From positions 104,055 through 162,662 of the forward strand of contig MIAA01000016.1 of assembly GCA_001830425.1 (NCBI GenBank): a stretch of 58,608 nt of DNA. The letters run 5' to 3'. This DNA comes from Rhodospirillales bacterium RIFCSPLOWO2_02_FULL_58_16 (GTDB lineage Bacteria > Pseudomonadota > Alphaproteobacteria > Rhodospirillales > 2-02-FULL-58-16). The notes below the pieces were generated by a model. That model did no database searches, was not told the origin of the DNA, and saw nothing but the letters and a program-made list of their open reading frames with translations. Below are positions 4,108 through 36,795 of this stretch, one piece after another; within the stretch, counting starts at the first letter, position 1, and each line of letters opens with the position of its first letter. The position numbers were made by a program, and so were the translations under genes.

Positions 4108-4978
4108 TGAACCAGGCGAACCCGATAAAGCGGCCCAGCCATAATTCAAGAGGCGACTGGATGGGCCATGGCTCGCCGTAAACAAGGACGCCCCCCGGAT
4201 GCTTTCCATAGCGGCTGATCTGGTAGCGGCGATAAATCCGGCCCAGCTTGGGAATCAGATAAAAGTAGAACTCTCCCTTACGCAAGGTAAGCCCCTGAAA
4301 ACGACCGAACAATTTCCTGACGCCGCCCGCCGTGTAGCATCGAGTAATGGGGTTCTTTACGGTTTGCCGGTTCTTTCCGCCCCACTCCGTTGCTTTGCCG
4401 AGCCAGTCGGCGTCCCTGAACGCCTTGCCGCAAAGCAGGCCTTGGCAAAACAGCATGTTGATCCAGTAATGCCAGGAACTCTTGCAATAAAGCAGAATTA
4501 CCGCTTTTCCTCCGGGCTTGAGCACGCGAAACACTTCGTTGACGGCAAGCGACGTATCATCGGTGTGATGAAGAACGCCGTTGGAATAGACGATATCAAA
4601 ATGGTTGTCGGCGAAAGGCAGGTTTTCGGCATCGGATTGCACGGCGTAACAGCCCTTGGCCCCGTCCCCCAGCAAGCGGAACTTGGCGGCGGTCGAGCAG
4701 GCGCGCTTCCAGGTGATATCGGCGGCGATGACCTCTGCGCCGTGACGAGCGAACAGCGCCGAATGGCCGCCGGCGCCCGGCCCGACCTCAAGGACTCGCT
4801 TGCCGGCCAGCCGCTCCAGCGGCATTTCCACTACGGCCATGTGATTTCGCAAGCGGAACATGTCTTCCGTGTCGTCAATGGCCTTAAGCAGGGCGTCGTG
4901 CGTCAAATCCCTGTCCATGTCCTCATAAAGAGACTCATAAAGGGAATGCCAAAAGGCCTGAATATGTTGCTTGGTCAT
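4085..4978 (-). CDS. Class I SAM-dependent methyltransferase
   Basis: SAM motif I is VLEVGPGAGGHSALFARHGAEV, with FDIVYSNGVLHH further on. It is the only minus-strand gene in the glycan locus. Its 3' end overlaps the convergent dehydrogenase by 23 nt. Confidence 0.8.
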   Translation of the reverse strand: MTKQHIQAFWHSLYESLYEDMDRDLTHDALLKAIDDTEDMFRLRNHMAVVEMPLERLAGKRVLEVGPGAGGHSALFARHGAEVIAADITWKRACSTAAKFRLLGDGAKGCYAVQSDAENLPFADNHFDIVYSNGVLHHTDDTSLAVNEVFRVLKPGGKAVILLYCKSSWHYWINMLFCQGLLCGKAFRDADWLGKATEWGGKNRQTVKNPITRCYTAGGVRKLFGRFQGLTLRKGEFYFYLIPKLGRIYRRYQISRYGKHPGGVLVYGEPWPIQSPLELWLGRFIGFAWFISAEKPD

Positions 4979-5030
4979 AAAATATGCGCCGCGAAGAACA
5001 AGGAATATGGTCTACTTATAGCAAATCGCC

Positions 5031-6746: not shown

Positions 6747-6747
6747 A

Positions 6748-8640
6748 ATGTGCGGCATCGCCGGACTTTTTCTGCCCCGCCGAGCGCCCATAGCCGAGGC
6801 CGCCATCGACGCCATGCTTGCCGTCATGAGACACCGGGGGCCGAACGGAACGGGGCGTTTCACCGGCGCTGACTGGCGATTTCAGTCCGGCTTCACGCGC
6901 CTCGCCATCATCGATCTGGCGACCGGCGACCAACCTATTGTCGAAAACGGCGGGGAGCGCGTCCTTCTCGGCAACGGCGAAATCTACAACTACATCGAAT
7001 TGCGCCGGGAAGAAGCGAATTATCCTTACCAAACCAACGGCGACATGGAAACCGTGCTGCCTCTGGCCACTCGTTACGGCGTCGATTTCGTTCACCGCCT
7101 CAACGGCATTTACGCCTTGGCCCTTTATGATCGCAAGGACCACCGCTTGCTGCTGGTCCGCGACCGCCTGGGCGTCAAGCCGCTCTACTGGACGCGCCTT
7201 GCCGGAGGCGGCATTCTTTTCGCGTCGGAAATAAAGGCCCTGTTCGCCTCCGGCCTGATAAAGCCAGAGGTGAACGAGGCCGCCGTTTCTTCCTATCTGG
7301 CTCACGGCTACGTTCCCGCCCCCCAAACCTTGTTCCTGGGCGTCAACAAGCTCAGTCCCGGACATATGATGACGGCGGCGGCGGACGGCTCTATCAAAAC
7401 AGAACGCTATTGGCGGGCGACGGCGGCGAATAATATGCCGACATCGCAACCCGAAGCCGGCGAGCATCTGCTCGGCCTGCTCCGCGACAGCATTCGTCTC
7501 CAGTTAAGAAGCGACGTTCCCCTGGGAGCGCTGCTGTCGGGCGGCATCGACTCCGGGCTTATGGTGGCCCTGGCCGCCGAACAATCCGCCGCCCCCCTCA
7601 ACACCTACACGGTCAGCTTTGAAGGATCATGCGTTGACGAAGCGCCGCTGGCCGAAAGCATCGCCCGGCGCTACGCCACCAATCACACCCGGTTCCGATT
7701 ACCGGCGGGCGCGGCGGCCGACTATCTGCCCAAGCTTGTCTGGCATTGCGAAGAACCGTTGAATGACGCGGCTCTTCTGCCCAACTATCTGATCGAGAAG
7801 TTTCTCAGCCGGCATGTAACGGTGGCCCTCAACGGCACCGGCGGCGATGAGTTGTTCGCCGGCTATGGCCGCTATTTCCGCCTGCCCGTCGAAGCCCGCT
7901 ATCTGCGGCTGCCCGAATGGTTAAGACAGGGCGTTATCGAGCCTGTCGCCAGCCTCGTCTCGCCGATGACCGCCTGGAAACTTCAACGGGCGGCTTTGTT
8001 CAACGACAATCGCGGCGACTATCTCCACCAGCACGGCGCCCACTTTCCCCGCCCCATGCGCCGCCTTATCGGCAATAAAATGACGGCGCCGACCCCGGCG
8101 CAGAATGAATTTTTCGCCGAATTCCAAGGCCCCCCCCAATCAGCGGCGCTTTATGCGGAGCTTAACACCTATCTGCCGGAAGATTTGCTGACCCTGCTGG
8201 ACAAGACATCAATGGCGGTAAGCGTCGAGGGCCGGGTGCCGTTCCTGGATCACCGGCTGGTGGAGGCGGCGCTGGCGGTTCCGCCCGAATTACGCACCCC
8301 CGGAGGGCGACAAAAAGGCCTGGAGCGCGCCATCGCCGCGCCCTTCCTGCCGGAAGAAGTCCTTAACGCCCCCAAGCAGGGTTTCGCCTCGCCGGTTCCC
8401 GCCTGGCTGAAAGCCGGTCTGGCCTCATCGGCGCGAAGGATATTGACCCGGCGCGAGACCCTTGATCGGGGATGGTGGACGGCGCAAGGCATAGAACGGC
8501 TGCTGGCGAAGCCGGACCTTCACGGTTTCAGGGTCTATTCCCTGCTGATGCTGGAATTGTCGATACGAATTCATATAGAGGGGCCTTTCCTCGCCGAGCC
8601 TCCCGAAGATGGTCTGGAGGCCCTGGCCGATGCCGCCTGA
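6748..8640 (+). CDS. Asparagine synthase-like glutamine amidotransferase (AsnB family, WbpS-like)
   Basis: MCGIAG N-terminal nucleophile (class II GATase) and the PP-loop LSGGIDSGL. 630 aa. Confidence 0.85.
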   Translation: MCGIAGLFLPRRAPIAEAAIDAMLAVMRHRGPNGTGRFTGADWRFQSGFTRLAIIDLATGDQPIVENGGERVLLGNGEIYNYIELRREEANYPYQTNGDMETVLPLATRYGVDFVHRLNGIYALALYDRKDHRLLLVRDRLGVKPLYWTRLAGGGILFASEIKALFASGLIKPEVNEAAVSSYLAHGYVPAPQTLFLGVNKLSPGHMMTAAADGSIKTERYWRATAANNMPTSQPEAGEHLLGLLRDSIRLQLRSDVPLGALLSGGIDSGLMVALAAEQSAAPLNTYTVSFEGSCVDEAPLAESIARRYATNHTRFRLPAGAAADYLPKLVWHCEEPLNDAALLPNYLIEKFLSRHVTVALNGTGGDELFAGYGRYFRLPVEARYLRLPEWLRQGVIEPVASLVSPMTAWKLQRAALFNDNRGDYLHQHGAHFPRPMRRLIGNKMTAPTPAQNEFFAEFQGPPQSAALYAELNTYLPEDLLTLLDKTSMAVSVEGRVPFLDHRLVEAALAVPPELRTPGGRQKGLERAIAAPFLPEEVLNAPKQGFASPVPAWLKAGLASSARRILTRRETLDRGWWTAQGIERLLAKPDLHGFRVYSLLMLELSIRIHIEGPFLAEPPEDGLEALADAA

Positions 8641-9538
8641 AGTCAGCGTGATCATCCCCGCCTATCGGGCCGCAAAGACCATCGCCAGGGCGCTGGTGAG
8701 CGTCGCCGCCCAGACTCTCAAGCCCTATGAAGCAATCGTCGTCGATGACGGCTCGGATGACGGAACCTGTGAGGCGGCGCTGGCCCTGGAACCCCGGATG
8801 AACGGCGTCCGGCTGAAAGTGTTTCGTCAATCCAATCGGGGGGCGGGAGCGGCCCGCAACCGGGCCGTGGCCGAAGCCTCCCGGCCCATACTCGCCTTCC
8901 TTGACGCCGATGACGAATGGCTGCCTGAAAAACTCGCCCGCAGTCTGGCCCACATAGAGGACGGCCATTACCTGCTGGTCGCTCACAACGGTTTGATCGT
9001 CGAAAACGGCAAGGAATCGCTGATCGACGGCGCCCGCCGCTTCCGGGAGGGAGGAGCGCCTTTTGTCTCCCTTTACCGCAAGGGCTATCTCGATACCTGT
9101 ACGGTCGTCACCCGGCGCGACGCCGTTATCGCCGCCGGAGGCTTCGATCCCACCTTAAAAAACGGGCAAGATTTTGAAATGTGGCTGGCCCTGCTGAAAC
9201 AGCCGGGCACCCGCTTTCTGGTGTTTGACGAACCCCTGTCGCGCTACCACGTCACCCCCGGCGGCATCATGAGCAATACCGAACGCCGCCTCGCCTGTTG
9301 CCTGAAAATCGCCGGGCGCTATGCCCCGGACCTGAAAAAACATCCCGGCTCGGCGATTTACAGCCTGTGGTTTCGCATTTTCGCCGTGCATTACGAAGCC
9401 GTTCAGGTTTATGTGAAACAACGAAAATTCACGGCGCTGTTGGTTTTATTACTGAAATTACCTTTTTTACTGTTCTCTATGACGGTGGCCTTTGTTTTTG
9501 TTCCGCCGCCGCAACGTCCTCGCTTTCTGGAAAAATGA
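8630..9538 (+). CDS. Glycosyltransferase family 2
   Basis: VSVIIPAYRAAKTI...VVDDGSDDGT...FLDADDEW are the GT-A fold motifs. I prefer the ATG at 8630 (MPPEVSVII), though 8609 is also possible. Confidence 0.8.
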   Translation: MPPEVSVIIPAYRAAKTIARALVSVAAQTLKPYEAIVVDDGSDDGTCEAALALEPRMNGVRLKVFRQSNRGAGAARNRAVAEASRPILAFLDADDEWLPEKLARSLAHIEDGHYLLVAHNGLIVENGKESLIDGARRFREGGAPFVSLYRKGYLDTCTVVTRRDAVIAAGGFDPTLKNGQDFEMWLALLKQPGTRFLVFDEPLSRYHVTPGGIMSNTERRLACCLKIAGRYAPDLKKHPGSAIYSLWFRIFAVHYEAVQVYVKQRKFTALLVLLLKLPFLLFSMTVAFVFVPPPQRPRFLEK

Positions 9539-9660
9539 TGAATCGGGAAAAACTGACCGCCGTCTTGCTTTGGCTTTGGCTGGGGATCGCCTTCGGCGCC
9601 TATCTTTTTCAGTACAGGGACATGGCCGGTCCGCTTCTCAAACTTTTAGGGCTGATCTGA
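9535..9660 (+). CDS. Small (41 aa) single-pass membrane peptide, unannotated in the ORF track as such
   Basis: It translates as MMNREKLTAVLLWLWLGIAFGAYLFQYRDMAGPLLKLLGLI, with one clear hydrophobic helix. Its ATG overlaps the GT2 stop (ATGATG at 9535-9540). Its TGA overlaps the ATG of the next gene (TGATG at 9658-9662). Confidence 0.5.
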   Translation: MMNREKLTAVLLWLWLGIAFGAYLFQYRDMAGPLLKLLGLI

Positions 9661-11546
9661 TGGCCTTCGGCGTCATTACGCTTGAGATATTGTGTTGCCT
9701 GGGGCTGGGCGCCGTTGTCTTGAAGCTGCTTAGAATCGGTGATGAGTTTACGCCCGGCGAACATGCCGCCTTCGCCTTCGTCGCCGGCTTCGGCATGTTG
9801 GGCTGGCTGATCTTTCCGCTGGGTCTTTTGGGGTTACTGGACAAAGGTTGGTTGTTCGGTCTGCTGATCGCCGGCTCATCGGGCATTATTTTATTAAAGC
9901 AAAAAGGATTGCCCCGACCGACCGGCCGTCTCGACGGCGTCGGCCGGGGATTGTCGGCGCTGATTCTGACGGCATTGCTTTTTGACCTGGCTGAAGGCCT
10001 TTCCCCGCCGGGAGATGCCGACTCCCTGGCCTATCATTTTACGGCGGTCAAACATTTCCTCGAAGCGGGACGGATTGTCTTTATTCTTCGTCCCGGCGAC
10101 GGGGCCATTCCCTACCTGACCCAAATGACTTATCTGCCCGCCCTGGCCCTCGGCGGCGAACAAGCCCTGACTTTATGGACCATGGTTTCCGGCTGGGCGG
10201 CGACGGCGTTGCTGTTTGTTCTTTGCCGCCATCACCTCAACCGCAACTGGTCGCTGGCTGTAACACTGATTTTTTTAACAACGCCGGCGATGATTTACGG
10301 CGCCGGAACCGGCCAGATTGAAGCCCGATTAGCCATGTTCGTCATGGTTGCCGCCTGGGCGGCGGCCCGCGCCCTGGAAAGCGGACGCCTGAATTACGCC
10401 ATGCTCGCCGGTCTCGCCGTCGGCTTCTATGGAGGATCGAAATATCTCGGTCTGCTGTTCGCCGTCGCTTGCGGCCTGACCCTTCTCGCGCAACGACGTT
10501 GGTTGATTCATGGCCTTGTTTTCAGCGCCGTCGCCTTGACCGCCGGCTTCCAATGGTACGCCTGGAACGGATTAAATACCGGCGACCCCTTCTTTCCGAT
10601 GTTTTTCCAATGGCTGGGACGGGACGATCTGCTTCTTTGGTCAAAGGAGCAGAATCTTTTCTACCGGCAGGTCTTTATGAATTATGACCGTCCGTTGCCG
10701 CGAACGCTTTTTTGGTTTTTTCTTTTTCCCTTTCAGGCAACTCTTGATTCCCCTTCCATAATTGAAGCCAAATTCGTCGGCCTCGGACCATTCGCGCTTC
10801 TTGTTTTACCCTTCGCCGCGTTGGGAATTTGGAAATTCCGTAGCCGCGTCCTCGGCAGCCGCTTACTGATTTACGGAATCATCGCCTTTCTTTTTTATGC
10901 CCTGTGGTTCTTCAGCGGCCCTTCGCAACGGGTTCGCCACCTGCTGCCGGTCCTGCCCTTGTTGTTGATCTGTCTAACCGTCGCCGCCGAGCGGTTTTCC
11001 TCGCAAGGTCGTTTTCGATGGCCGCTTGCCGCCGCCGTTTCAGCGACCGTTTTATTTCAAATGTCCACAGAAGTCGTTTTCTCGATCAAGTACCTGCGCT
11101 ACGTTATGAGCAACGAGAGTCGTGAATCCTTTCTGTTCCGAAATGTCAAAAACTATGCGCCCGTCCCTTGGATAAACGCCCATCTTTCCAGATCAGACAA
11201 GTTGTTTATCGGCGAACGGCAACTGTTTTATTTTCTTGAAATGCCTTATCTGTTCAGTTCTCCCCACACCCAATCCGCCGTCAACACGCGGGAAGAACAA
11301 CAAGACCCCGCCATCCTGTTCCGGCAATTGAAGGCCGCCGGGATCACCCATGTGCTCGTCGGCCGAAGCAATGATGGAGAAAAAAAACTTTCCCCCCGAT
11401 CCCTTGATCTGTTGAGTCACACAAATTGTCTTGAACTGTTGAACAGGTTTGAGACCCAAGGCATCGGTTCCAGAACATTTTCCGAAACCATGTCTTCCAA
11501 GGCCGCCTTTGACCTTCTTAAACTTAACGCGGATTGCCTCCCGTGA
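9660..11546 (+). CDS. Large polytopic membrane protein, GT-C-like (ArnT/PMT-type) glycosyltransferase candidate
   Basis: 628 aa from MAFGVITLEI. There are many hydrophobic segments, an acidic first-loop motif (SPPGDADSLAYHF) and a soluble C-terminal domain. The Arg-rich 9492-9659 extension in the track looks non-coding. Confidence 0.55.
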   Translation: MAFGVITLEILCCLGLGAVVLKLLRIGDEFTPGEHAAFAFVAGFGMLGWLIFPLGLLGLLDKGWLFGLLIAGSSGIILLKQKGLPRPTGRLDGVGRGLSALILTALLFDLAEGLSPPGDADSLAYHFTAVKHFLEAGRIVFILRPGDGAIPYLTQMTYLPALALGGEQALTLWTMVSGWAATALLFVLCRHHLNRNWSLAVTLIFLTTPAMIYGAGTGQIEARLAMFVMVAAWAAARALESGRLNYAMLAGLAVGFYGGSKYLGLLFAVACGLTLLAQRRWLIHGLVFSAVALTAGFQWYAWNGLNTGDPFFPMFFQWLGRDDLLLWSKEQNLFYRQVFMNYDRPLPRTLFWFFLFPFQATLDSPSIIEAKFVGLGPFALLVLPFAALGIWKFRSRVLGSRLLIYGIIAFLFYALWFFSGPSQRVRHLLPVLPLLLICLTVAAERFSSQGRFRWPLAAAVSATVLFQMSTEVVFSIKYLRYVMSNESRESFLFRNVKNYAPVPWINAHLSRSDKLFIGERQLFYFLEMPYLFSSPHTQSAVNTREEQQDPAILFRQLKAAGITHVLVGRSNDGEKKLSPRSLDLLSHTNCLELLNRFETQGIGSRTFSETMSSKAAFDLLKLNADCLP

Positions 11547-11592
11547 CTAAAAAGTCTAGTAATCAGTTCATTGCCGTCGAAGAGAGCATCCC

Positions 11593-12306
11593 ATGTCCGT
11601 CAAATCCCTGAGCATCGTGATCCCTTGTTACAATGAAGCGCCGACCCTGGAATCCCTGGTCAAGCGGGTTCTTCGCGCTGATTGCTGCGGGATGGAGCCG
11701 AACCTGATCATCGTTGATGACGCCTCCAAAGACGGCTCCCGCGAAAAAGCCGAAGCCCTGGCCGCCGAAGATTCCCGCATTCAAGTGATTTGCCACGAGA
11801 AAAATCAGGGAAAGGGCGCGGCGATGCGCACCGGGTTCGCTGCGGCTCGCGGCGATGTGGTCCTCGTCCAGGACGCCGATCTGGAATATGATCCGGGCGA
11901 ATATCCGAAGCTGCTGCGGCCGATACTCGATGGAAAAGCGGATGTGGTATACGGGTCGCGCTTTCGCGGCGGAGAATGTGTTCGCGTCCTCTATTTCTGG
12001 CACACCGCCGGCAATAAATTTCTGACCTTTTTATCAAACATGTTCACCGATCTCAGCTTTACCGACGTGGAAACCTGTCACAAGGTCTTTCGCCGCGAAG
12101 TCCTGGAAAAAATATCAATCGAGGAGAACCGGTTCGGTTTTGATCCGGAAATCACGGCGAAAATAAGCCGGCTCAAACCGGCGCCCCGGATTTTCGAGGT
12201 AGGCATCGGCTATACGGGCCGCACCTATCAGGAAGGTAAAAAAATCGGCTGGAAAGACGGTTTTCGGGCGATTTTCTGCATACTTCGCTATAATATCTTC
12301 CGCTGA
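11593..12306 (+). CDS. GT2 polyprenyl-phosphate glycosyltransferase (DPM1/GtrB/ArnC-like), lacking C-terminal TM helices
   Basis: LSIVIPCYNEAPTL, IIVDDASKDGS, NQGKGAAMRTG, VQDADLEYDP and VYGSRF match the DPM1/ArnC-type signature. The protein is 237 aa and ends without a hydrophobic segment. Confidence 0.75.
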   Translation: MSVKSLSIVIPCYNEAPTLESLVKRVLRADCCGMEPNLIIVDDASKDGSREKAEALAAEDSRIQVICHEKNQGKGAAMRTGFAAARGDVVLVQDADLEYDPGEYPKLLRPILDGKADVVYGSRFRGGECVRVLYFWHTAGNKFLTFLSNMFTDLSFTDVETCHKVFRREVLEKISIEENRFGFDPEITAKISRLKPAPRIFEVGIGYTGRTYQEGKKIGWKDGFRAIFCILRYNIFR

Positions 12307-12318
12307 CAGATCCCGAGT

Positions 12319-13860
12319 ATGGCGAACGTCCTGTTGATCAATCCGTCCTATGAGCCGTCCTATGGCGGGACCAAGGTCGGCATCATTAATCCCATCCACC
12401 CTACCCTCGGCCTGGCCACCATCGCCGCCGTCGCCAAGCTGCAAGGACACCATGTCGGGATTCTGGATCTTTCCTGGCGACCCTACGATTACCGGCTGAT
12501 CCGCGCCAAAATCCTGGAATCAAAAGCGGATATCGTCGGCATTACCGCCACCACTCCCTTGATGAACCAGCTTCGCGACATCAGCGTGCTGGCAAAGGAT
12601 ATTTCCAAAGACATTAAAGTCGTCGGCGGCGGTCCCCATATTTCCGCTCTTCCCATGGAAACAATGAAAGAATCGATGCTGGACGCCGTTTTCGTCGGCG
12701 AGGCCGATTACTCTTTCGCCGACTACTGCGACGCCTCGAACCCCGCCGACGTTAAGGGAATTTACTATCGATCCGGGGATGAAATCATAAGCACCGGACT
12801 GCGGCCGTTGATCCAGGATCTGGACGATCTGCCCATGCCGGCGTGGGACCTTTATGATACCAACGACTATCACCGCATTTCCCGCATCCTGGTCAAGCGC
12901 CGGCCGGTAACAATCGCCGAATTTTCACGCGGCTGCGTTTTCACATGCGACTTCTGCGCCAGCAAAAACACGACGGGACTGGGATATCGGAAAAAGTCTC
13001 CCGAACGTTGCGCCGAAGAAGTCAAACGCATGAGGGACCTGGGCTTCAGGGAATTCTGGCTGGCCGACGATATTTTCACCTCGGACCAGGACTGGGCGAC
13101 GGCGGTAAGCGAAGCCATCATCAAGGCCGATACCGACATGATCTGGACCTGTCACAACGGCATTCGCGTCGAAAGCGCTGACGATCATATGTTCAAGGTA
13201 ATGAACAAGGCGGGATGTTACCGGGTCAACTTCGGTTTTGAAAGCGGCAACGACGGCATTCTAAAATCATTCGGCAAGGGGGGGCGGGCCTCGATCGAAC
13301 AAGGCCAGATCGCCGTCAACAAGGCGCGCAAGGCGGGCATGGACACCTGCGGATCAATGCTTTTAGGGCTTTCCCATGACACCGAGGAAACGATGATGGA
13401 CACCATCGAATATGCCCGCAGCCTTCCTCTGGATATGATGAAGTTCGGAGTAACCATCGCCTTTCCGGGAACCGCCATGTTCCAGAATTACGCCGATAAG
13501 GGATTGGTCAAGACCTTCAATTGGGACAGTTATTTCTTCTACACCGACGAATCGCTGTTCGCCCATCAATACCTGACTTACGACACGATCCGCAAATACA
13601 TGGATATCGCCTACAAGCGGGCCATTTTCTATAACCCCGCCTTCGCCCTCAGGCGTCTGATCCGGGGCTTCAGAACCGGAGAATTCTTCTGGGACGTTTA
13701 CTACGCCATGAAGTTTTTCATGATGCCGGCGTCGCGCTCGACGCTGATGTCTCAATATTACGCCAAGGACCGCTGGCCGCAGTATGATTTTATAAATAAC
13801 CCGCCCCGAAAAGCCGCCTACCAGAAGGCCAGGAAAGGACCGTCGGAAAATGACCATTAA
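12319..13860 (+). CDS. B12-binding-domain radical SAM enzyme (class B)
   Basis: The N-terminal domain is Rossmann-like (ADIVGITATTPL). The radical SAM cluster motif GCVFTCDFC (CxxxCxxC) reads directly from the translation. 513 aa. Confidence 0.8.
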   Translation: MANVLLINPSYEPSYGGTKVGIINPIHPTLGLATIAAVAKLQGHHVGILDLSWRPYDYRLIRAKILESKADIVGITATTPLMNQLRDISVLAKDISKDIKVVGGGPHISALPMETMKESMLDAVFVGEADYSFADYCDASNPADVKGIYYRSGDEIISTGLRPLIQDLDDLPMPAWDLYDTNDYHRISRILVKRRPVTIAEFSRGCVFTCDFCASKNTTGLGYRKKSPERCAEEVKRMRDLGFREFWLADDIFTSDQDWATAVSEAIIKADTDMIWTCHNGIRVESADDHMFKVMNKAGCYRVNFGFESGNDGILKSFGKGGRASIEQGQIAVNKARKAGMDTCGSMLLGLSHDTEETMMDTIEYARSLPLDMMKFGVTIAFPGTAMFQNYADKGLVKTFNWDSYFFYTDESLFAHQYLTYDTIRKYMDIAYKRAIFYNPAFALRRLIRGFRTGEFFWDVYYAMKFFMMPASRSTLMSQYYAKDRWPQYDFINNPPRKAAYQKARKGPSENDH

Positions 13861-14284
13861 GCCGCCCACCGAAGAAGAAAAGGCCGCTTGGCCTAAAACC
13901 GTCATCGTGCCTATGGAAAAGCCGTTTGCCGACGCACGGGGCGAAATTCAGCCTCTGGTCGATCTGCCCATGGAGAGCGCGGTGCTCATCAGCTCGAAGA
14001 AAGGCACGGTGCGGGCCAACCACTACCACAAGACCGATTGGCATTTTTGCTACGTTATTACAGGGATGATTGAATATCACCATCGTCCGCACGGCGGCGG
14101 CGGGAAACCGGATAAGGTTATCATCAGGCAAGGACAACAGTTTTTCACCCCGCCCCAGGTTGATCACACCATGGTCTTTTTGGAGGACACGGTGTTCCTG
14201 ACGCTGGGCCGCAATTCCCGCCGACAGGAAGTTTACGAGGCCGACATCGAACGCATCGAATTGGTAAGCCCGGCAGCGACATAA
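13850..14284 (+). CDS. Cupin-fold protein (NDP-keto-sugar epimerase/isomerase-like, WbuC/FdtA-like)
   Basis: 144 aa. VRANHYHKTDWHFCYVITG and PPQVDHTMVF are cupin motifs. Its start overlaps the radical SAM stop by 11 nt. Confidence 0.55.
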   Translation: MTIKPPTEEEKAAWPKTVIVPMEKPFADARGEIQPLVDLPMESAVLISSKKGTVRANHYHKTDWHFCYVITGMIEYHHRPHGGGGKPDKVIIRQGQQFFTPPQVDHTMVFLEDTVFLTLGRNSRRQEVYEADIERIELVSPAAT

Positions 14285-14288
14285 TCAC

Positions 14289-15533
14289 TTGAGCGATCTT
14301 TGTCATCGGCGTGAAACTTGCCGTCTGTGCGGTTCCGGCAACCTTGTCCCCGCCTTCAAGCTGACGCCGACGCCCCCCGCCAACGCCTTCGTCACGGCGG
14401 ACAAGCTGAACGAGAAACAGGAATGTTTCCCGCTGGATGTGTTTTTCTGTAACGATTGCGCCCATGTGCAATTGCTTGACGTGGTCGATCCCAAGGCATT
14501 GTTTGAGAACTATGTCTACGTTTCGGGAACCTCGCCGGTCTTTGTCGCTCATTTTTGTGATTATGCCGCCGATCTTCTGAAGCGGTTTGCGCCCTCGCCG
14601 AAAAGCCTGGCGGTGGATATCGGCTCCAATGACGGAACCCTTCTGAAATTCTTCAAGGAAGCGGGAATGCGGGTGCTGGGCATCGACCCGGCCACGGACA
14701 TCGCACGACGCGCCGCCGAAGACGGGATCGAGACGATAGCCGGATTTTTCACCCCGGATCAGGCTTTGCGCATCCGTGAAAAACATGGGCGGGCGGCGAT
14801 AATTACCGCCAACAATGTGTTCGCCCATATCGACGACCTGACGGGCGTCGCCGCCGGCGTCCGGGAACTCCTCGACGATAACGGCGTTTTTTCATTTGAG
14901 GTTTCCTATCTGGCGGATGTCGTCGACAACACCCTGTTTGATATGACCTATCACGAACATCTAGCCTATCATTCGGTAAAACCGCTCAGGCGTTTTTTCA
15001 CGGCCAACGGCATGGAGATGATTGAAGCCCTGCGCACCGACAGCCACGGCGGATCGCTTCGCGGCATCGCCCGACTTAAAAACGGCGGACATCCGGCGGG
15101 AGCGTCGGTCGGCGAAATGATCGCCCTGGAAGAAGAAAAGAAACTGGATCGCGTCGAAACGCTTGTTGATTTCGGCGACAAAATAGAAGAAAAAAAGAGA
15201 GAATTGGGTTCCCTGCTGCGCCGCTTGAAAAGCGACGGAAAAACCATCGCCGGATTCGGAGCGCCCGCCAAAGCCACCACGTTGATGTATCACTTCGGCC
15301 TGGGTCCGGATATTATAGACTTCATCGTCGATGACAGTCCTTTGAAACAAGGCCTTTTTTCGCCGGGATTTCACATTCCGGTTCTTCCTTCGGCGGCTAT
15401 TTATGAACGTAAGCCCGATTATCTGTTGATACTTGCCTGGAACTTCGCCGAACCGATAATAAGCAAACACCAATCATTCTCCCGCGAAGGGGGGCGTTTT
15501 ATCATTCCTCTTCCCGCAATCAGGATCATTTAA
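14289..15533 (+). CDS. NDP-hexose C-methyltransferase (TylC3-like; Zn-ribbon + class I MTase + C-methyltransferase C-domain)
   Basis: N-terminal CRLCGS...FFCNDCAHVQL four-Cys ribbon, followed by the SAM motif AVDIGSNDGTLL. 414 aa. The TTG start at 14289 is uncertain. Confidence 0.75.
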   Translation: MSDLCHRRETCRLCGSGNLVPAFKLTPTPPANAFVTADKLNEKQECFPLDVFFCNDCAHVQLLDVVDPKALFENYVYVSGTSPVFVAHFCDYAADLLKRFAPSPKSLAVDIGSNDGTLLKFFKEAGMRVLGIDPATDIARRAAEDGIETIAGFFTPDQALRIREKHGRAAIITANNVFAHIDDLTGVAAGVRELLDDNGVFSFEVSYLADVVDNTLFDMTYHEHLAYHSVKPLRRFFTANGMEMIEALRTDSHGGSLRGIARLKNGGHPAGASVGEMIALEEEKKLDRVETLVDFGDKIEEKKRELGSLLRRLKSDGKTIAGFGAPAKATTLMYHFGLGPDIIDFIVDDSPLKQGLFSPGFHIPVLPSAAIYERKPDYLLILAWNFAEPIISKHQSFSREGGRFIIPLPAIRII

Positions 15534-15535
15534 AA

Positions 15536-16597
15536 ATGACCGATTTTATCATTCCATCCGATGTCGCCGAAATCGCCGGGAGTCTGGGAGATTCCGCCGA
15601 GGCCTTTACCGGCAAAACCGTCCTGCTGACCGGAGGTCGCGGTTTCCTCGGCCGCTACTTCATGGAAGTCTTTGCCCACCTGAACGACAACGTCCTGAAA
15701 AAACCCTGCCGTTTGATCGTTCTCGACAATTTGATTACCGCCGGCAAGGAAGGTTCCATCATCCCGGATATGCAAAACGTCAAGTTCATCAATCATGATG
15801 TGGCGAAGCCGTTGGAAATAAAGGATAAAATAGACTACGTCATTCATGCCGCCGGCATAGCGAGTCCGTTCTACTATCGCGCCTTCCCGCTGGAAACCCT
15901 CGAAACAGCGGTGGCCGGCGCCAAGAACATGCTGGAGTTGGCCGTTCATAATCAGGCCCGCTTTACATTCTTCAGCTCCAGCGAAATTTATGGCGATCCG
16001 GACCCGAAGCATGTCCCTACATCCGAAAGCTACCGGGGCAATGTATCGTGCCAGGGGCCGCGAGCCTGCTACGATGAAAGCAAACGTCTGGGCGAAACCT
16101 TGTGCCATATTTTCCATGAAATGCACGGCGTCTGCACCAACACCATCCGTCCGTTCAACGTATTCGGGCCGGGCATGCAGGAAACGGATTATCGCGCCAT
16201 GCCCAACTTCGCCAGCCGCATCAAGGCGGACAAACCACTGAGCATCTACGGCTCCGGCGATCAAACCCGCACCTTCTGCTACATCACGGACGCCATGAAC
16301 GGTTTTTTGCGGGTGATAGTTCACGGCGTGCCGGGAGAGGCTTACAATATCGGCAATCCCAAGCCCGAAGTGTCCATGATCGATTTGGCCGGGCGCGTGG
16401 AAAAAGTCATCGGTCGCAAGATTAAATACAATATCATCGAATATCCGGACAGTTATCCTGCCGATGAACCCCAACGCCGTTGCCCCGATATTCGCAAGGC
16501 AACGCTACAAGTCAGGTATGAACCCAAAATAGCCCTGGATGAGGGATTGCGCCGTTTCTTCGCCTGGACTGACGCAACCTATAGCGGAGAGGCGTGA
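15536..16597 (+). CDS. UDP-glucuronate decarboxylase-like (UXS/ArnA C-domain type) extended SDR
   Basis: VLLTGGRGFLGRYF, SSSEIYGDP, YDESKRLGE and YGSGDQTRTFCY motifs. Confidence 0.75.
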   Translation: MTDFIIPSDVAEIAGSLGDSAEAFTGKTVLLTGGRGFLGRYFMEVFAHLNDNVLKKPCRLIVLDNLITAGKEGSIIPDMQNVKFINHDVAKPLEIKDKIDYVIHAAGIASPFYYRAFPLETLETAVAGAKNMLELAVHNQARFTFFSSSEIYGDPDPKHVPTSESYRGNVSCQGPRACYDESKRLGETLCHIFHEMHGVCTNTIRPFNVFGPGMQETDYRAMPNFASRIKADKPLSIYGSGDQTRTFCYITDAMNGFLRVIVHGVPGEAYNIGNPKPEVSMIDLAGRVEKVIGRKIKYNIIEYPDSYPADEPQRRCPDIRKATLQVRYEPKIALDEGLRRFFAWTDATYSGEA

Positions 16598-17538
16598 AAA
16601 TCGTTCGGCTCGGGTTAATCGGCGCCGGCCCCTGGGGCCGCAATTATATTCGCACCATCAGAAAGATGAAGGGGATTCGTCTAGCCGGATTGGCCAGCAG
16701 AAACCCTGAAAGCAGAACCCTGGTCGATAGGGACTGCATAATTTCCGAGGACTGGCGCGAAGTGATCGACGCCGATGACCTGGACGGCGTCATCATCGCT
16801 ACGCCGCCGAACACCCATGCGGAAATAGCAAAAGCGGCGATATCGGCGGGAAGGCCGGTTCTGATTGAAAAGCCGTTGACCGTCGACCTTAGAGAGGCCG
16901 AAGAACTTCTGGCTTTATGCGAGGCCGTCGGCGGCCTGGTCATGGTCGATCACATCCATCTTTTCAGCGCCGCGTGGGAAGCCTTGAAACAAGAAGCATT
17001 AGGCCTCGGACCGATACGCGCCATTGTTTCTCTGGCCGGCAAGCAAGGCCCGTTCCGCGAGAAAACGTCCGTCTTGTGGGATTGGGGGCCTCATGACATC
17101 GCCATGTGCTGCGACCTCCTCGGCCGGCCCCCGGAAGCGATCACGGCAACCAGAACGGAAACCCGTCAACTCAAAGAAGGCGTCGGCGAAACACTGAAAC
17201 TTGACGCTGATTTCGGACAGGGACTTTCCGCCGGGATTGTCATCAGCAACCTGCTTGTTACGAACCGGCGCTATTTTTGCGTATATTTTGATGATTGCGC
17301 CTTGGTCTATGATGATACGTCCGCCGACAAGTTGACGCGCCATTCCCTGCCGGAAGGGGCCAAAGGAACCCTGGGGCCGAAAGAACCGCTGACGGTAAAG
17401 AATGAAGCGCTGTTGAACAGGGTCATCAATAAATTCAGAACCGCCATCGTAACCGGGTCGCGCGATATATCCGGCTTGCGGCTCGGCGTCACCGTTGTCG
17501 ATGTCTTGACCAGGGCGCAACAATCATGTGTGGAATAG
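16594..17538 (+). CDS. Gfo/Idh/MocA-family oxidoreductase
   Basis: LGLIGAGPWGRNY and ATPPNTHAEIAKAAISAGRPVLIEKPL motifs. GTG start in a GTGA overlap with the upstream stop. Confidence 0.8.
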   Translation: MKIVRLGLIGAGPWGRNYIRTIRKMKGIRLAGLASRNPESRTLVDRDCIISEDWREVIDADDLDGVIIATPPNTHAEIAKAAISAGRPVLIEKPLTVDLREAEELLALCEAVGGLVMVDHIHLFSAAWEALKQEALGLGPIRAIVSLAGKQGPFREKTSVLWDWGPHDIAMCCDLLGRPPEAITATRTETRQLKEGVGETLKLDADFGQGLSAGIVISNLLVTNRRYFCVYFDDCALVYDDTSADKLTRHSLPEGAKGTLGPKEPLTVKNEALLNRVINKFRTAIVTGSRDISGLRLGVTVVDVLTRAQQSCVE

Positions 17539-19376
17539 CCGGCGGCACGCATATTGAAGCCGAGACCCTTGGCGTCATGCGTGAAAGACTTAGCCATCGC
17601 GGTCCTGACGGCAACGGCGTGTGGCGGGACGACGGCGTCGGCTTCGCCCATACCCGGCTGGCCGTTATCGACACCGGTCCCGGCGGCGCCCAACCGATGG
17701 TTTCCGATTGCGGTCGATTCGTCCTGACCTATAACGGTGAGATCTACAATTACCGCGAACTGCGCGTCGAACTGGAGGCCGAAGGAGACCGCTTCCGCTC
17801 GACGAGCGATACCGAGGTATTGCTTAATCTGTTGCGTCGTTACGGCCCGGACGGAATCAGCCGCCTGACCGGCATGTTTTCTTTCGCCTTCTGGGATTGC
17901 AAAACCAAAGAGCTTTTGCTGTGCCGTGACCGTTTAGGCGTCAAGCCGTTGGTTTATGCTCATCTGAATGACGGTCAATTGGCTTTTGCCTCCGAGATCA
18001 ACGCCCTTAAGAGTCATCCCGGCATTGATCTTGCCGTAGACAACTCGGCGTTATCTGAATTTCTGGCCTGTCTTTATGTTCCGGCGCCCCGCACCATATA
18101 CTGCGGGATCAAAAAACTGCCTCCCGGTCATTTGTTGCGATGGCAAAACGGCAAAATTACGCTGGAGCCGTACTGGCGCCCTTCGATTAACGGAAGCCGC
18201 CTGCTTGCCGTGGACGATGCGATTGATGAACTGCTGCCGTTAGTGAAAAAAGCCGTTGTGTCGCACATGGTGTCCGATGTGCCTGTCGGGTGTTTCCTTT
18301 CCGGAGGCATCGACAGTTCGGTAATCGCCGCCCTCATGGCCGAAGAGGCGCGCCGGCAAGGGGCGGCGCCCATTCACACCTTTACCATGACCTTCGATGA
18401 AGCGGCCTACGACGAGCGAACGGCGGCGCGCCGTGTTGCCTCGCATATAGGAAGCCGTCACGCCGAGCTTCCGGCAAGCTCCCGATTAGTGAATCTGCTG
18501 AGTGATTGCGTCGCCGGCTTCGGCGAGCCTTTCGGCAACCCGACGGCGCTGCTGATTCATGACTTGTCGCGCAAAGCGCGGGAACATGTCACCGTCGCCC
18601 TGGTCGGGGATGGCGGCGACGAAACATTCGCCGGCTATCCCCGCTACGAAGGAGGGCTGCTTGCCCAAAAGTACCGACGCCTTCCGAAATGGCTTAGACG
18701 CGGCATTATCGAACCGGCGTCATGCCTTATCCCCGAAAGCGCCGACGGTCGTCATTTCCTGCGCCGGGCGCGGGAGTTTTTAACCGGCGCCAACCATCCC
18801 GACGGCGAAATGTACGCCTCATGGGTTGAGTATTTCAGCCGTGAAGAACGCCGCCTGCTCCTCGGAGCGGACGAAGCGCCGCCAAGCCCGATCAACGATC
18901 TGTTCCTGCAGGCGCCGTCTTCCCATCCCCTGGACGCCATGCAGCAAACCGACCTGCTGTCATTTCTTCCCGGCAATCTTCTTGCTTACGGCGACGCCAT
19001 GAGCATGAGACACGCGCTGGAACTGCGACTGCCGTTGATCGATCATCATTTGGTGGAGCATATCGGAATGTTGTCCCCATCCCTTCGCGTAAACGGCGGA
19101 ATGAAAGGCCTGCTGAAGGCCGTCGCCCGCCGCCTTTTGCCCAATGAAATCGTTGACGCTCCGAAAAGAGGGTTCAATCCTCCCATGGGAGTTTGGCTCA
19201 AGACCGACCTGAAGGAAATGGTAAAAGAGCGGATCACCCCGGCCAACATGGCGGCGCTGGGTCTTGAATGGGGGCCGGTGGAGACTCTTCTTTCCGAGCA
19301 TCGGCGGGGAAACCGCGACCATTCCTTGAAAGTTTGGGCTTTGCTTGTGCTTGATGTATGGCGAAGCGCACAATAA
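17526..19376 (+). CDS. Asparagine synthase-like glutamine amidotransferase, second paralog
   Basis: MCGIAGG N-terminus and the PP-loop LSGGIDSSV. 616 aa. It is clearly diverged from the 6748..8640 copy. Confidence 0.85.
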   Translation: MCGIAGGTHIEAETLGVMRERLSHRGPDGNGVWRDDGVGFAHTRLAVIDTGPGGAQPMVSDCGRFVLTYNGEIYNYRELRVELEAEGDRFRSTSDTEVLLNLLRRYGPDGISRLTGMFSFAFWDCKTKELLLCRDRLGVKPLVYAHLNDGQLAFASEINALKSHPGIDLAVDNSALSEFLACLYVPAPRTIYCGIKKLPPGHLLRWQNGKITLEPYWRPSINGSRLLAVDDAIDELLPLVKKAVVSHMVSDVPVGCFLSGGIDSSVIAALMAEEARRQGAAPIHTFTMTFDEAAYDERTAARRVASHIGSRHAELPASSRLVNLLSDCVAGFGEPFGNPTALLIHDLSRKAREHVTVALVGDGGDETFAGYPRYEGGLLAQKYRRLPKWLRRGIIEPASCLIPESADGRHFLRRAREFLTGANHPDGEMYASWVEYFSREERRLLLGADEAPPSPINDLFLQAPSSHPLDAMQQTDLLSFLPGNLLAYGDAMSMRHALELRLPLIDHHLVEHIGMLSPSLRVNGGMKGLLKAVARRLLPNEIVDAPKRGFNPPMGVWLKTDLKEMVKERITPANMAALGLEWGPVETLLSEHRRGNRDHSLKVWALLVLDVWRSAQ

Positions 19377-19407
19377 TACCGATGGCCGTAAAAAATGACT
19401 CTGAAAA

Positions 19408-19490
19408 ATCCTCCCCCTTGCTTCAAGGGGGAGTTAGAGGGGGTCGTTGCAGCAACCTCCCCTGGCCCCTCCTTGGTAAGGAGGGGAAAT
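19408..19490. repeat. REP-like intergenic element with two perfect 9-bp-stem hairpins
   Basis: Hairpin 1 at 19411-19433 (ctccccctt/gcttc/aagggggag). Hairpin 2 at 19466-19486 (cccctcctt/ggt/aaggagggg). A ttgcagcaa palindrome lies between them. The element sits between the AsnB-like stop and the ligase-like start. Confidence 0.6.
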
Positions 19491-19514
19491 GGCATTTCAG
19501 GATTTGGAATTGAT

Positions 19515-20756
19515 ATGAAGATACCCCGGATTCATACAGGTCACGTTCTCGGCGCATCGTCATTGCTGATGATCCCCTTTGCTCTCTTCATGTCGAAAGC
19601 CGTGGCGGCGCTGTTTGTCGCAACCGCAATTTCCGGGTTGACGTTATTTTTCATCAAGGAACGCTCATGGCCTGATTTGCCGAAATCTTCCCTGGTGTTT
19701 TTTGCCGTAGTTGTTATTTGGGGGATCATAAGCTCGATCTGGTCCATCGCTCCGGAAAATAGCCTGCATTTGTCTCTACCGCTTGCCGGAACATTTCTGG
19801 GCGGACTGGTTTTGATTTCCCTGGCAACCCGGCTGCGTGATGATGAGCGGCGCTTTTTTGAAGGCGCGTTGATCATCGGCGCCTGTGTCGGCTACGCCGT
19901 GTTAGCCATAGAAATTTTCACCCCCCTGGCATTGACGCACGCCTTCTGGAAGATCACAAAGGGACGCGAGGTTCTTATCGATTACACTCAAGCCAATTAC
20001 TATAAAAGCGGCATGACCGTGGCGGCGCTGATGCTGTGGCCGGCCATGGGGGCGCTGTGGAAAAAAGGCGCCGGAACCGGCGCGGCCCTTCTTTTCGCCT
20101 CGGCCTTGTTCATTAACTTTCAAAGCGGCAGCGGATCATCAACGCTTGCCGGCATTGTCGCTTTTTCCGCATTCCTGATATCCATCGCCTTTCAAAAGCG
20201 GGCCGCCGGAATTTTCTTGACCCTGGTTATCGTCAGCGTGTTCGCCATGCCGTTGTTTTCTCTCCTTCTGCCGAGCGCGAAAGACTTCGAAGTAAAGGAA
20301 TATAATTTACCCGAATCCTTATATCCTCGAATTTTCATCTGGAAATTTGCCGCCGATTATATTCAGGAAACGCCGATATTAGGCAAAGGCCTTAATTCGT
20401 CACGCGCCCTTTCTTCCGAAAAGGACAAAAAAACATACCCTGTATTAAACCATGGGTCCCGAACTCTCGAACCGATTCCGCTTCATCCGCACAGCGTCGT
20501 TCTTCAGATATGGCTGGAATTCGGCGCAGTCGGCGCAATTATGCTGGTAGTATTGCTGCGGGCGCTTATCCGCCGCCTGAGTAAATGCGACGACCTTGTT
20601 CTTCGCGCCTTCGGTTACGGCGCCTTCTTTTCCACCCTTTCTATCACATATGTAAGTTACGGCATCTGGAGCAGTTGGTGGCAGGGGTCTCTTTGGCTGA
20701 CGGCCGCCTTTGCCACGGCGTTAGTCACCGAAAAAAATATGGAGAATCCGGGCTGA
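19515..20756 (+). CDS. O-antigen ligase/polymerase family (Wzy_C-type) membrane protein
   Basis: Polytopic protein. IPLHPHSVVLQIWLEFGAVG is the periplasmic-loop motif typical of O-antigen ligase-like proteins. I prefer ATG 19515, because the 19395 extension runs through the REP element. Confidence 0.7.
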   Translation: MKIPRIHTGHVLGASSLLMIPFALFMSKAVAALFVATAISGLTLFFIKERSWPDLPKSSLVFFAVVVIWGIISSIWSIAPENSLHLSLPLAGTFLGGLVLISLATRLRDDERRFFEGALIIGACVGYAVLAIEIFTPLALTHAFWKITKGREVLIDYTQANYYKSGMTVAALMLWPAMGALWKKGAGTGAALLFASALFINFQSGSGSSTLAGIVAFSAFLISIAFQKRAAGIFLTLVIVSVFAMPLFSLLLPSAKDFEVKEYNLPESLYPRIFIWKFAADYIQETPILGKGLNSSRALSSEKDKKTYPVLNHGSRTLEPIPLHPHSVVLQIWLEFGAVGAIMLVVLLRALIRRLSKCDDLVLRAFGYGAFFSTLSITYVSYGIWSSWWQGSLWLTAAFATALVTEKNMENPG

Positions 20757-36501: not shown

Positions 36502-36709
36502 GAAATCCCCCCCGTTTCCCCCGTTATAACGGCCCTTTATATATTTCTAAAAAGGCCACCCCCTTACTTTATAATCATAAAAGATAAGAAGGTAACTGAT
36601 TTTGAGACAGACTTACGCATCGAGCGATTTACGCATACGGCATAAGCGGCCCGTATGCTTATACCAGCAGCCTTACTCATTGATCCATAATGGCCCATTG
36701 CCGGGTTGC

Positions 36710-36787
36710 GATCTGTGTTCATCAGCATACATCCGTGGCTGATAACTAAGGTGAAAAAACCACGGATGAACGCCGATTAACGCGGAT
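36710..36787. repeat. Imperfect inverted-repeat (REP-like) element
   Basis: Perfect 9-bp core stem catccgtgg (36730-36738) / ccacggatg (36760-36768). The arms extend imperfectly (about 17 of 21 positions on hand alignment) to 36710 and 36787. Confidence 0.5.
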
Positions 36788-36795
36788 ATCAATTC

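Follow-up and report, generated by a model that had tools for sequence, protein, structure and literature searches.

The 58,608-nt stretch of Rhodospirillales bacterium RIFCSPLOWO2_02_FULL_58_16 analysed here (contig MIAA01000016.1, positions 104,055 to 162,662; referred to as the window) carries a 5.2-kb block of five consecutive genes. They encode a radical S-adenosylmethionine (SAM) protein (rSAM), a cupin, a TylC3-type C-methyltransferase (C-MT), a short-chain dehydrogenase/reductase (SDR) of the UXS type and a Gfo/Idh/MocA oxidoreductase (Gfo); their coordinates are collected in Table 1. The original prediction took these genes for one coupled block, in which the rSAM would carry out a second, radical methylation or a rearrangement on the same sugar. 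Our analysis favours another picture with a probability of about 0.65: the block represents two separately inherited surface-glycan modules joined by a deletion, and the rSAM works on a lipid-linked sugar together with a family 2 glycosyltransferase (GT2) and a GT-C-type membrane glycosyltransferase encoded just upstream. Both modules, i.e. the unit ending with rSAM and the cassette of the four following genes, are uncharacterised.

The joint between the two modules can be located to within a few nucleotides by comparison with related loci. The upstream order heparinase-like protein, AsnB, GT2, 41-aa micro-ORF (open reading frame), GT-C, GT2, rSAM is kept in L081, L082 and the P0010 place, and the downstream part differs. 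In L081, the rSAM of which is 94% identical to that of the window, about 9 kb with nine other genes separate rSAM from cupin and C-MT (11538–20513 of that locus: two GDSL-like proteins, DUF5989, a carbamoyltransferase, two methyltransferases, an SxtJ-like protein, a 507-aa protein and a 332-aa GT2). On the contig of L082/L090 (rSAM 87%) the genes cupin-C-MT-SDR-Gfo-AsnB are found ~15.9 kb past rSAM, and in the P0010 place (rSAM 77%) rSAM is followed by genes for an SDR, a protein without assignment, a C-MT, a GT2, Ugd and DegT. The blastn alignment pairs window positions 2350–13837 with 2–11519 of L081 and window positions 13828–14874 with 20481–21528 of L081, so that 8,961 bp of L081 have no counterpart in the window. 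The 10 nt shared by both alignments match both flanks of the missing segment and mark the point where the 3' end of rSAM meets the cupin leader. The tail of the rSAM reads …KARKGPSENDH here (513 aa) and …KARKEKRN (510 aa) in L081, the other nearest relatives having 510 aa as well; the last seven residues, GPSENDH, are read from the former cupin leader. A deletion of ~9 kb thus accounts for the abutment of rSAM and cupin, for their 11-nt overlap and for the new C-terminus of the rSAM. The overlap, which had been read as a sign of coupling, is a lineage-specific deletion scar and therefore no evidence of ancient translational coupling. Among the nine genes lost is the cassette's own GT2, which stands before the cupin gene in the relatives.

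Elsewhere the cassette cupin-C-MT-SDR-Gfo, often together with AsnB, is an autonomous and widespread unit, usually led by its own GT2. This was examined with 80 Gfo-anchored metagenome loci (44–67% identity), 34 of which extend at least 3.6 kb upstream of Gfo. In these 34 loci the upstream region contains the C-MT in 29 cases, the cupin in 28 and the UXS-type SDR in 24; all three are present in 20, and cupin and C-MT occur without the UXS-type SDR in seven, which points to cupin-C-MT-Gfo as the conserved core. A gene resembling the small GT2 of the window at ~40% identity (homologs of that GT2 are termed GT2b below) lies within 6 kb upstream of Gfo in 13 of the 34, and this frequency of a Dpm1-like GT2 at the head of the cassette suggests that many genomes deliver the sugar by way of a lipid carrier. 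Orthologs of the rSAM, taken at 45% identity or more, were found in none of the 34 Gfo-anchored loci and in none of the 20 loci with a length of 15 kb or above. In L092 the genes GT2-cupin-C-MT-SDR-Gfo stand alone amid housekeeping genes. L162 and L171 reproduce the order of the window (HAD … heparinase-like-AsnB-GT2-GT2'-cupin-C-MT-SDR-Gfo-AsnB-GT4-GT1-SDR-WbpM) without GT-C-GT2-rSAM. The AsnB gene after Gfo recurs at 67–78% identity in L090, L091/L093, L107, L162 and L171. A radical SAM gene beside the cassette in L091/L093 was considered as support for coupling and rejected: it lies on the opposite strand, and its product is only 26% identical and hence a different paralog.

Two further observations concern the cassette itself. 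The cupin-C-MT-Gfo variant without a UXS-type SDR was seen in L103, L125, L129, L130, L136, L138, L146, L153, L154, L157, L159, L160, L163 and L165, often with an unrelated SDR on the opposite strand; the source of the keto sugar, and probably the sugar too, would thus differ between the variants. On the marine-sediment contig L091 (5697–6940) the C-MT is split into ORFs of 194 and 220 aa, which may be a frameshifted pseudogene or an assembly error.

The rSAM, for its part, belongs to a tight, discrete and highly conserved family present in more than ten phyla. Its best 120 database matches, from many phyla, are all at least about 62% identical; in an exhaustive search the group scored 565 and 505 bits (51% and 49% identity), after which the scores fell to ~350 bits (38%). 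A tblastn search of 72,556 plasmids returned only rSAM paralogs of 26–32% identity and left Gfo unmatched. The surroundings of the family were analysed at 80 genome loci with orthologs at 48–77% identity (Alpha- and Gammaproteobacteria, Nitrospinota, Nitrospirota, Elusimicrobiota, Actinomycetota, Planctomycetota, Binatia, Omnitrophota and others). Magnetospirillum moscoviense BB-1, Paramagnetospirillum kuznetsovii LBB-42 and Methylomonas rosea WSC-7 are cultured organisms that carry the gene. Neighbour families were obtained by de novo ORF clustering, and counts within ±5 genes were made over 74 orthologs. The commonest neighbour is GT2b (26/74), followed by SDRs (20/74), a second radical SAM protein (19/74), AsnB (15/74), GMC-like FAD oxidoreductases and class-I methyltransferases (14/74 each), and UbiA-type and MBOAT proteins (4/74 each). 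A TylC3-type C-MT occurs once in the 74. Among the 116 immediate neighbours Pfam recognises GT2 in 17, Radical_SAM in nine, Epimerase in eight and methyltransferases in eight, and none of the 25 most frequent families is Methyltransf_13/14, cupin or GFO. When the rSAM loci were searched with the cluster proteins of the window (tblastn), a cupin or C-MT was detected near rSAM only in L001, L002 and L006, members of the closest clade, and no convincing Gfo or UXS homolog was found. The rSAM and the cassette are thus not co-conserved from either side (0/34 and 1/74), a result that the original prediction had itself named among those that would speak against it; a single coupled block with a second radical methylation is not supported.

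The genes that do accompany rSAM are of a different kind. GT2b-type genes make up 11.1% of the rSAM-adjacent ORFs and 1.9% of those at a distance of 5–12 genes, a six-fold enrichment; for polytopic membrane proteins with at least eight transmembrane segments the values are 14.1% and 3.6% further out, a four-fold one. Twelve of the 16 adjacent GT2b-rSAM pairs are co-directional, each with a gap of at most 150 nt. The combination of GT2b, GMC-like protein, SDR and rSAM is common to 11 loci of different phyla, often with AsnB. In Magnetospirillum moscoviense (L014) the order is GDSL-SDR-GMC-rSAM-GT2-2-epimerase-Gfo/acetyltransferase-DegT-AsnB, the family content of which resembles the Wbp-type diacetamido-uronic acid pathway. 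These enrichments, the operon-like pairs and the recurrent gene set favour a role of the rSAM together with GT2 and GT-C.

In the window the rSAM would accordingly be the last gene of a separate unit, GT-C - small Dpm1/ArnC-type GT2 - rSAM. The GT-C protein matches PMT_2 with 39.4 bits (cut-off 26.1) and GT87 with 27.2 bits, and a crude Kyte-Doolittle count of the 684-aa ORF gives six hydrophobic segments. It is syntenic with rSAM in L081, L082, L002 and the P0010 place and lies near rSAM in L006, L007 and L008. The best NCBIfam relatives of the small GT2 are all polyprenyl-phosphate glycosyltransferases (AglJ, ArnC, PgfS, PpgS and a dolichyl-phosphate hexose transferase), each below its cut-off; the protein is a putative polyprenyl-phosphate sugar synthase. 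Gene calls for the micro-ORF between the upstream GT2 and GT-C exist in L081, L082 and L086–L088, with conserved translations; a role as a small subunit of the GT-C enzyme is conceivable. In the proposed sequence of events the rSAM would act in the cytoplasm, either on the sugar loaded onto polyprenyl phosphate by the small GT2 or on its nucleotide precursor, and GT-C would then transfer the modified sugar outside the cytoplasm. The rSAM would thereby serve as an auxiliary tailoring enzyme in a "three-component" system for periplasmic glycosylation.

The domain composition of the rSAM is clear, and its architecture is that of the class-B (B12-binding-domain) radical SAM enzymes. Pfam recognises a B12-binding domain (PF02310, 70.5 bits at a cut-off of 32.1) and a Radical_SAM domain (71.2 bits). 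Across 46 homologs the cysteines C206, C210 and C213 of the CxxxCxxC motif are invariant, as are T78-T79 and G104-G105 in the N-terminal domain; the use of cobalamin is predicted. No NCBIfam model claims the protein, all matches being far under the cut-offs. The highest scores belong to HpnJ (TIGR03471, 156.9 bits, E 8e-46, cut-off 577.6), BchE (146 bits) and ApyD (126 bits). The methylase models follow with PhpK at 96 bits (cut-off 600), the C-methyltransferase of ribosomally synthesised and post-translationally modified peptides at 90 (282), HpnR at 84 (650) and KedN5 at 41 (700), and the AprD4 model NF033070 gives 86 bits at a cut-off of 500. The MoeK5, GenK and Fom3 models are not among the NCBIfam matches. 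HpnJ, BchE, AprD4, PhpK and HpnR were ruled out as identities of the rSAM by these scores, HpnJ also by context, the window having no hpn genes.

The AlphaFold model of the rSAM (pLDDT 87.8, pTM 0.88) was compared with known structures by Foldseek. AprD4 ranks first (TM-scores 0.69/0.77, E 3.6e-24, 21% identity), and after it the B12 enzymes MgmA, TsrM, CysS, TokK and OxsB align with the rSAM fold. AprD4 is also the best solved structure by sequence (E 1.2e-18), in a match that spans the radical SAM core only (residues 162–398). The class-B assignment of the original prediction is borne out by the two domains and by a fold that matches radical SAM cores and aligns with B12 enzymes. A function as methylase is not secured, the best profiles being those of the non-methylases HpnJ and BchE and the top structural match being AprD4, a cobalamin-independent dehydratase. 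For the reaction, a C-methylation like that of MoeK5 is our first choice, an HpnJ-like rearrangement or an AprD4-like dehydration being the alternatives.

The proteins of the cassette can be assigned more closely, and here the original prediction of a C-methyl-branching route agrees well with the profile and structure searches. Pfam confirmed all five family assignments, that of the cupin marginally. The C-MT contains Methyltransf_13 (74 bits), a class-I SAM domain (53 bits) and Methyltransf_14 (184 bits), and its alignments with MtmC (4rv9, E 2.2e-91, residues 9–412) and TcaB9 (3ndi, E 4.4e-77) are full-length. It has the features of a TylC3/TcaB9-type enzyme, and membership of this family suggests methylation of a carbon next to a keto group. 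The SDR matches Epimerase (158 bits) and also GDP_Man_Dehyd; human UXS1 is its best solved relative (E 6e-62, 212 bits versus 108 bits for the next PDB match). Its SSSE and YDESK motifs and the arginine of PQRR align with T118 (as Ser)/E120, Y147/K151 and R277 of the human enzyme, respectively. The SDR is therefore described as UDP-glucuronate decarboxylase-like, a predicted source of UDP-4-keto-pentose or UDP-xylose. The only sequence-family match of the cupin is Cupin_2 (27.7 bits, marginally over the cut-off). Its AlphaFold2 model (pLDDT 91.5) retrieves QdtA, FdtA and WlaRA first (TM-scores 0.65–0.71) and RmlC-type epimerases nearly as well; of the HxH pair, H58 is invariant and H60 is present in at least 90% of the sequences. 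Fold and HxH pair fit a nucleoside diphosphate (NDP)-keto-sugar 3,4-ketoisomerase-like enzyme or an epimerase, without a sequence match to the FdtA family. Gfo (Pfam GFO_IDH_MocA, 77 bits) has the archaeal UDP-GlcNAc 3-dehydrogenase model as its best NCBIfam match (84 bits, under cut-off), and its nearest named relatives are sugar 3-dehydrogenases and 3-ketoreductases; it is a probable sugar keto-reductase or dehydrogenase. Its closest structure is 3c1a (E 3e-70), described as "putative oxidoreductase". That structural-genomics entry carries no assigned function, and the cassette gives it a likely role in branched-sugar biosynthesis.

Taken together, the most likely chemistry of the cassette would begin with oxidative decarboxylation of UDP-glucuronate to UDP-4-keto-pentose by the UXS-type SDR. 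The keto sugar would then be the substrate of the cupin, acting as isomerase or epimerase. The TylC3-type C-MT would methylate the carbon next to the keto group in a SAM-dependent manner, and reduction of that group by Gfo would yield a C-methyl-branched sugar for an O-antigen-like polymer.

Table 1. Positions of the five genes, of their neighbours and of the deletion junction in the window.
Feature	Position	Strand	Remarks
Micro-ORF	9535-9660	+	41 aa, single transmembrane helix; MMNREKLTAVLLWLWLGIAFGAYLFQYRDMAGPLLKLLGLI
GT-C-type polytopic membrane glycosyltransferase	9660-11546	+	628 aa as called on identical contigs
Small Dpm1/ArnC-type GT2	11593-12306	+	237 aa; Pfam Glycos_transf_2, 135 bits
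rSAM	12319-13860	+	513 aa
Deletion junction	13828-13837	.	10 nt matching both L081 flanks
Cupin	13850-14284	+	144 aa
C-MT	14289-15533	+	414 aa, TTG start
UXS-type SDR	15536-16597	+	353 aa
Gfo/Idh/MocA oxidoreductase	16594-17538	+	314 aa, GTG start
AsnB-type glutamine amidotransferase	17526-19376	+	Pfam Asn_synthase, 281 bits
parB, parA, rsmG (gidB), mnmG (gidA), mnmE	51726-57580	−	right end of the window

The five genes with their overlaps and motifs had been described correctly: ORFs, junctions and translations all agree. The overlaps comprise 11 nt between rSAM and cupin (13850–13860), GTGA between SDR and Gfo (16594–16597) and 13 nt between Gfo and AsnB (17526–17538); gaps of 4 and 2 nt separate cupin from C-MT and C-MT from SDR. 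The translations show GCVFTCDFC in the rSAM, the Cys4 ribbon CRLC...CNDC in the C-MT and SSSEIYGDP and YDESKR in the SDR. The same gene order and an identical SDR protein were found on 13 metagenome contigs from several samples, and hence the ORFs are real genes in a stable genotype and not chance ORFs.

The block is enclosed by a glycan cluster of ~26 kb, nearly all of it on the + strand. From the left end it contains genes for a cytidylyltransferase, a protein without assignment, a HAD hydrolase, a 2-hydroxyacid dehydrogenase, a class-I methyltransferase (− strand), a heparinase II/III-like protein, AsnB and a GT2. These are followed by the micro-ORF, the GT-C (PMT_2) protein, the small GT2 and the five-gene block, and the right part is formed by AsnB, Wzy_C, a WecA-like GT4, a GT1, an SDR and a WbpM-like dehydratase. 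Beyond the cluster lie purH, nadABC, gdh, amt and ftsK and, at the right end of the window, the parAB-rsmG-mnmG-mnmE set, a typical neighbour of the chromosomal replication origin. The G+C content is 0.53–0.55 from GT-C to Gfo (9000–17000) and 0.60–0.63 at 5–9 kb and 25–31 kb; the lowered value is consistent with a variable, horizontally exchanged part of the cluster. A scan of 8–21 kb for promoters and terminators gave counts at the level of shuffled sequence. Among the scanned window ORFs of at least 150 aa no UDP-glucose dehydrogenase was present. No DegT/ArnB aminotransferase was found among them either, in keeping with the original statement that this is not a route to 4-amino-4-deoxy-L-arabinose (Ara4N).

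Several features of the cluster and its relatives deserve mention on their own. The first four genes (730–4107, + strand), at the left of the cluster, are conserved as a set. They encode a CTP_transf_3 cytidylyltransferase, a 321-aa protein, a HAD phosphatase and a D-2-hydroxyacid dehydrogenase, and the set recurs in L033 and L081 and in part in the Actinomycetota metagenome-assembled genome L019 (dehydrogenase 66% identical). Their families and distribution suggest that the module supplies a CMP-activated acidic substituent and has been transferred horizontally. The class-I methyltransferase at 4085–4978 (Methyltransf_11, 79 bits) is the sole − strand gene of the cluster and is kept in L081, L082 and the P0010 place; the ORF at 4199–5038 on the + strand, which overlaps it, has no family match and is therefore probably spurious, the − strand methyltransferase being the real gene. 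The 9-kb segment of L081 looks like a further glycan-decoration set (O-carbamoylation, O-methylation, perhaps acylation), which differs between strains with 94% identical rSAMs. In L085 (6583–9587), L003 and L004 (Thalassospiraceae/Rhodospirillales) a 70% identical rSAM ortholog is located with a second radical SAM protein of 441–458 aa between gdh and amt-ftsK. At that site the window (36501–37853) has a tRNA-Gly gene (36953–37027) and no rSAM gene.

Three other explanations have to be weighed against that of two joined modules. It is very unlikely that all five genes form one pathway, in which the rSAM would modify the TylC3-methylated NDP-sugar once more, by a radical methylation or a rearrangement, to give a doubly branched sugar. 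The genes are indeed co-directional and tightly packed in an arrangement stable on 13 contigs, and both gene sets occur in the same large glycan cluster in all close relatives; moreover, with the cassette GT2 deleted, the small GT2 next to rSAM might serve both modules. Nevertheless, the rSAM is missing from all 34 cassette loci and a C-MT is near only one of 74 rSAM genes, the overlap is a deletion scar between gene sets that lie 9 kb and ~15.9 kb apart in the nearest relatives, and the closest relatives of the rSAM by profile (HpnJ, BchE) and by structure (AprD4) are non-methylases. Unlikely, too, is a general substrate outside the glycans for the rSAM, for instance a membrane lipid, polyprenyl chain or cofactor, the glycan context being incidental or due to a shared lipid carrier. 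Identities of ~50–77% across phyla are as expected of a common substrate, about half of the loci are without recurrent glycan neighbours, and the best profile relatives (HpnJ, BchE, HpnR and the ladderane radical SAM protein) act on lipids or tetrapyrroles. In addition, the orthologs beside gdh-amt-ftsK have a second radical SAM protein as their sole partner. A non-glycan substrate agrees poorly with the six-fold and four-fold enrichment of Dpm1-type GT2 and polytopic membrane proteins beside rSAM, nor with the 12 operon-like GT2b-rSAM pairs and the spread of the GT2, GMC, SDR and AsnB set over several phyla. The third alternative concerns chemistry only and fits the two-module picture: the rSAM would be no methylase at all, catalysing an AprD4-like dehydration or an HpnJ-like rearrangement of the sugar ring, with one of the SDRs often found beside rSAM genes possibly as follow-up reductase. 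We consider this doubtful rather than improbable. AprD4, with its sugar-diol substrate, is the best solved match by sequence and fold, SDRs lie within ±5 genes in 20 of 74 loci, and HpnJ (157 bits) and BchE (146 bits), the top profiles, are both non-methylases (PMC9204698). However, the scores of HpnJ, BchE and AprD4 are far under the cut-offs, and the sequence match to AprD4 covers residues 162–398 only. The B12-binding match is strong (70.5 bits) and its domain has invariant residues, whereas AprD4 uses no cobalamin (PMC12931638), and characterised B12-dependent radical SAM enzymes are mostly methylases (PMC9204698).

The two-module explanation itself meets several difficulties. In every close relative both modules reside in one large cluster, and cooperation in the lineage of the window is possible; the loss of the cassette GT2 may have forced both modules to share the small GT2, the branched sugar then passing through the rSAM. 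The association with GT2b is partial (26/74), and any of GT2b, GMC, AsnB, UbiA or MBOAT is seen in only 34 of 74 loci; in L085, L003 and L004 the rSAM beside gdh-amt-ftsK, paired with a second radical SAM protein, stands in a non-glycan context. Pfam is blank for most of the large polytopic proteins encoded beside rSAM (a weak match to PMT_2, a faint one to YfhO and one to MFS were obtained), so that the label "GT-C" is only putative for those neighbours. A flippase (GtrA, MATE or similar) was not found among the cluster ORFs of the window. The substrate, the cobalamin binding and the reaction type of the rSAM are predictions from sequence and context, and the order of the cassette steps is drawn from knowledge of the families.

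Two widespread and conserved gene sets of environmental bacteria without an assigned product are thus defined. The rSAM family is preferentially linked to polyprenyl-phosphate glycosyltransferases, and the portable cupin-C-MT-UXS-Gfo cassette probably makes a C-methyl-branched sugar. We tentatively suggest, at rather low confidence, that the rSAM family is a new glycan-tailoring enzyme performing radical C-methylation, deoxygenation or ring rearrangement on a polyprenyl-phosphate-linked sugar before its transfer by GT-C. Radical SAM steps are essentially undescribed in the assembly of lipopolysaccharide (LPS) and O-antigen, and knowledge of the role of the family would enrich surface-glycan biosynthesis by a new tailoring reaction; if true, three-component LPS/O-antigen glycosylation would here have its first radical SAM step. 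Our literature searches found no radical SAM enzyme for O-antigen clusters, undecaprenyl phosphate, GT-C or three-component systems and nothing relevant on the combination of cupin, C-MT and UXS. The case also carries a lesson of method: overlapping stop and start codons, read as functional coupling, arose here from a recent deletion.

The cassette is best compared with the pathways of mycarose and kijanose type. Its C-MT is like TylC3, TcaB9 and MtmC in the Zn-ribbon, class-I SAM and Methyltransf_14 domains, and TylC3-type pathways also combine the methyltransferase with a cupin epimerase, a Gfo-family 3-ketoreductase and an SDR. In contrast to them, the window has a UXS-type decarboxylase instead of dTDP-glucose 4,6-dehydratase and 2,3-dehydratase; with this enzyme as the source of the keto sugar, UDP-pentose chemistry is probable. 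The genomic setting differs as well, being an O-antigen-like cluster here and an antibiotic cluster there. FdtA, QdtA and WlaRA, the best fold matches of the cupin, share with it a length of ~135–144 aa and the H-x-H pair, at an identity of only 16–20%.

For the rSAM, the moenomycin pathway offers a parallel. In it, a lipid-phosphate-linked uronic acid is modified by AsnB-like amidotransferases and a carbamoyltransferase, two families that recur around rSAM as well. The enzyme MoeK5 of this pathway is listed as a B12-dependent radical SAM protein that appends one methyl group (PMC9204698), and its gene is one of three named as responsible for the earliest monosaccharide intermediate (PMC3814723). 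MoeK5 and HpnJ are the published precedents for B12-domain radical SAM proteins working on lipid-linked monosaccharides downstream of a glycosyltransferase (PMC3814723, PMC9204698, PMC13459092). The likeness to MoeK5 is one of description, and lipid carrier, organism and product class differ. HpnJ, the best profile match, is a radical SAM protein with a B12 domain that works on a lipid-linked amino sugar once the glycosyltransferase HpnI has acted (PMC13459092, PMC9204698); HpnI, HpnK and HpnJ act successively on lipid-linked glucosamine (PMC13459092), and HpnJ co-localises with MoeK5 and Fom3 in a similarity network (PMC9204698). It differs in that the score here is far below the cut-off and no hopanoid genes are nearby, and the ring contraction by HpnJ has itself only been proposed. 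AprD4, which takes part in the 3'-deoxygenation of apramycin, is the closest structure and has a sugar ring as substrate; it is only 21% identical and shows a B12-rSAM-like architecture without cobalamin (PMC12931638).

Finally, the Arn pathway was considered for the whole block and ruled out, ArnB being absent. Compared with it, the window is also without formyltransferase or deformylase, no flippase was found, and the SDR has no formyltransferase domain. The likeness to Arn and to the other three-component systems, which consist of a polyprenyl-phosphate sugar synthase, a flippase and a GT-C enzyme (PMC11127046, PMC12690121), lies in the set of enzymes: the window likewise encodes a UXS/ArnA-like decarboxylase, an ArnC/Dpm1-like GT2 and an ArnT/PMT-like GT-C protein, and auxiliary sugar-modifying enzymes, such as the rSAM would be, occur in three-component periplasmic glycosylation systems (PMC11127046).

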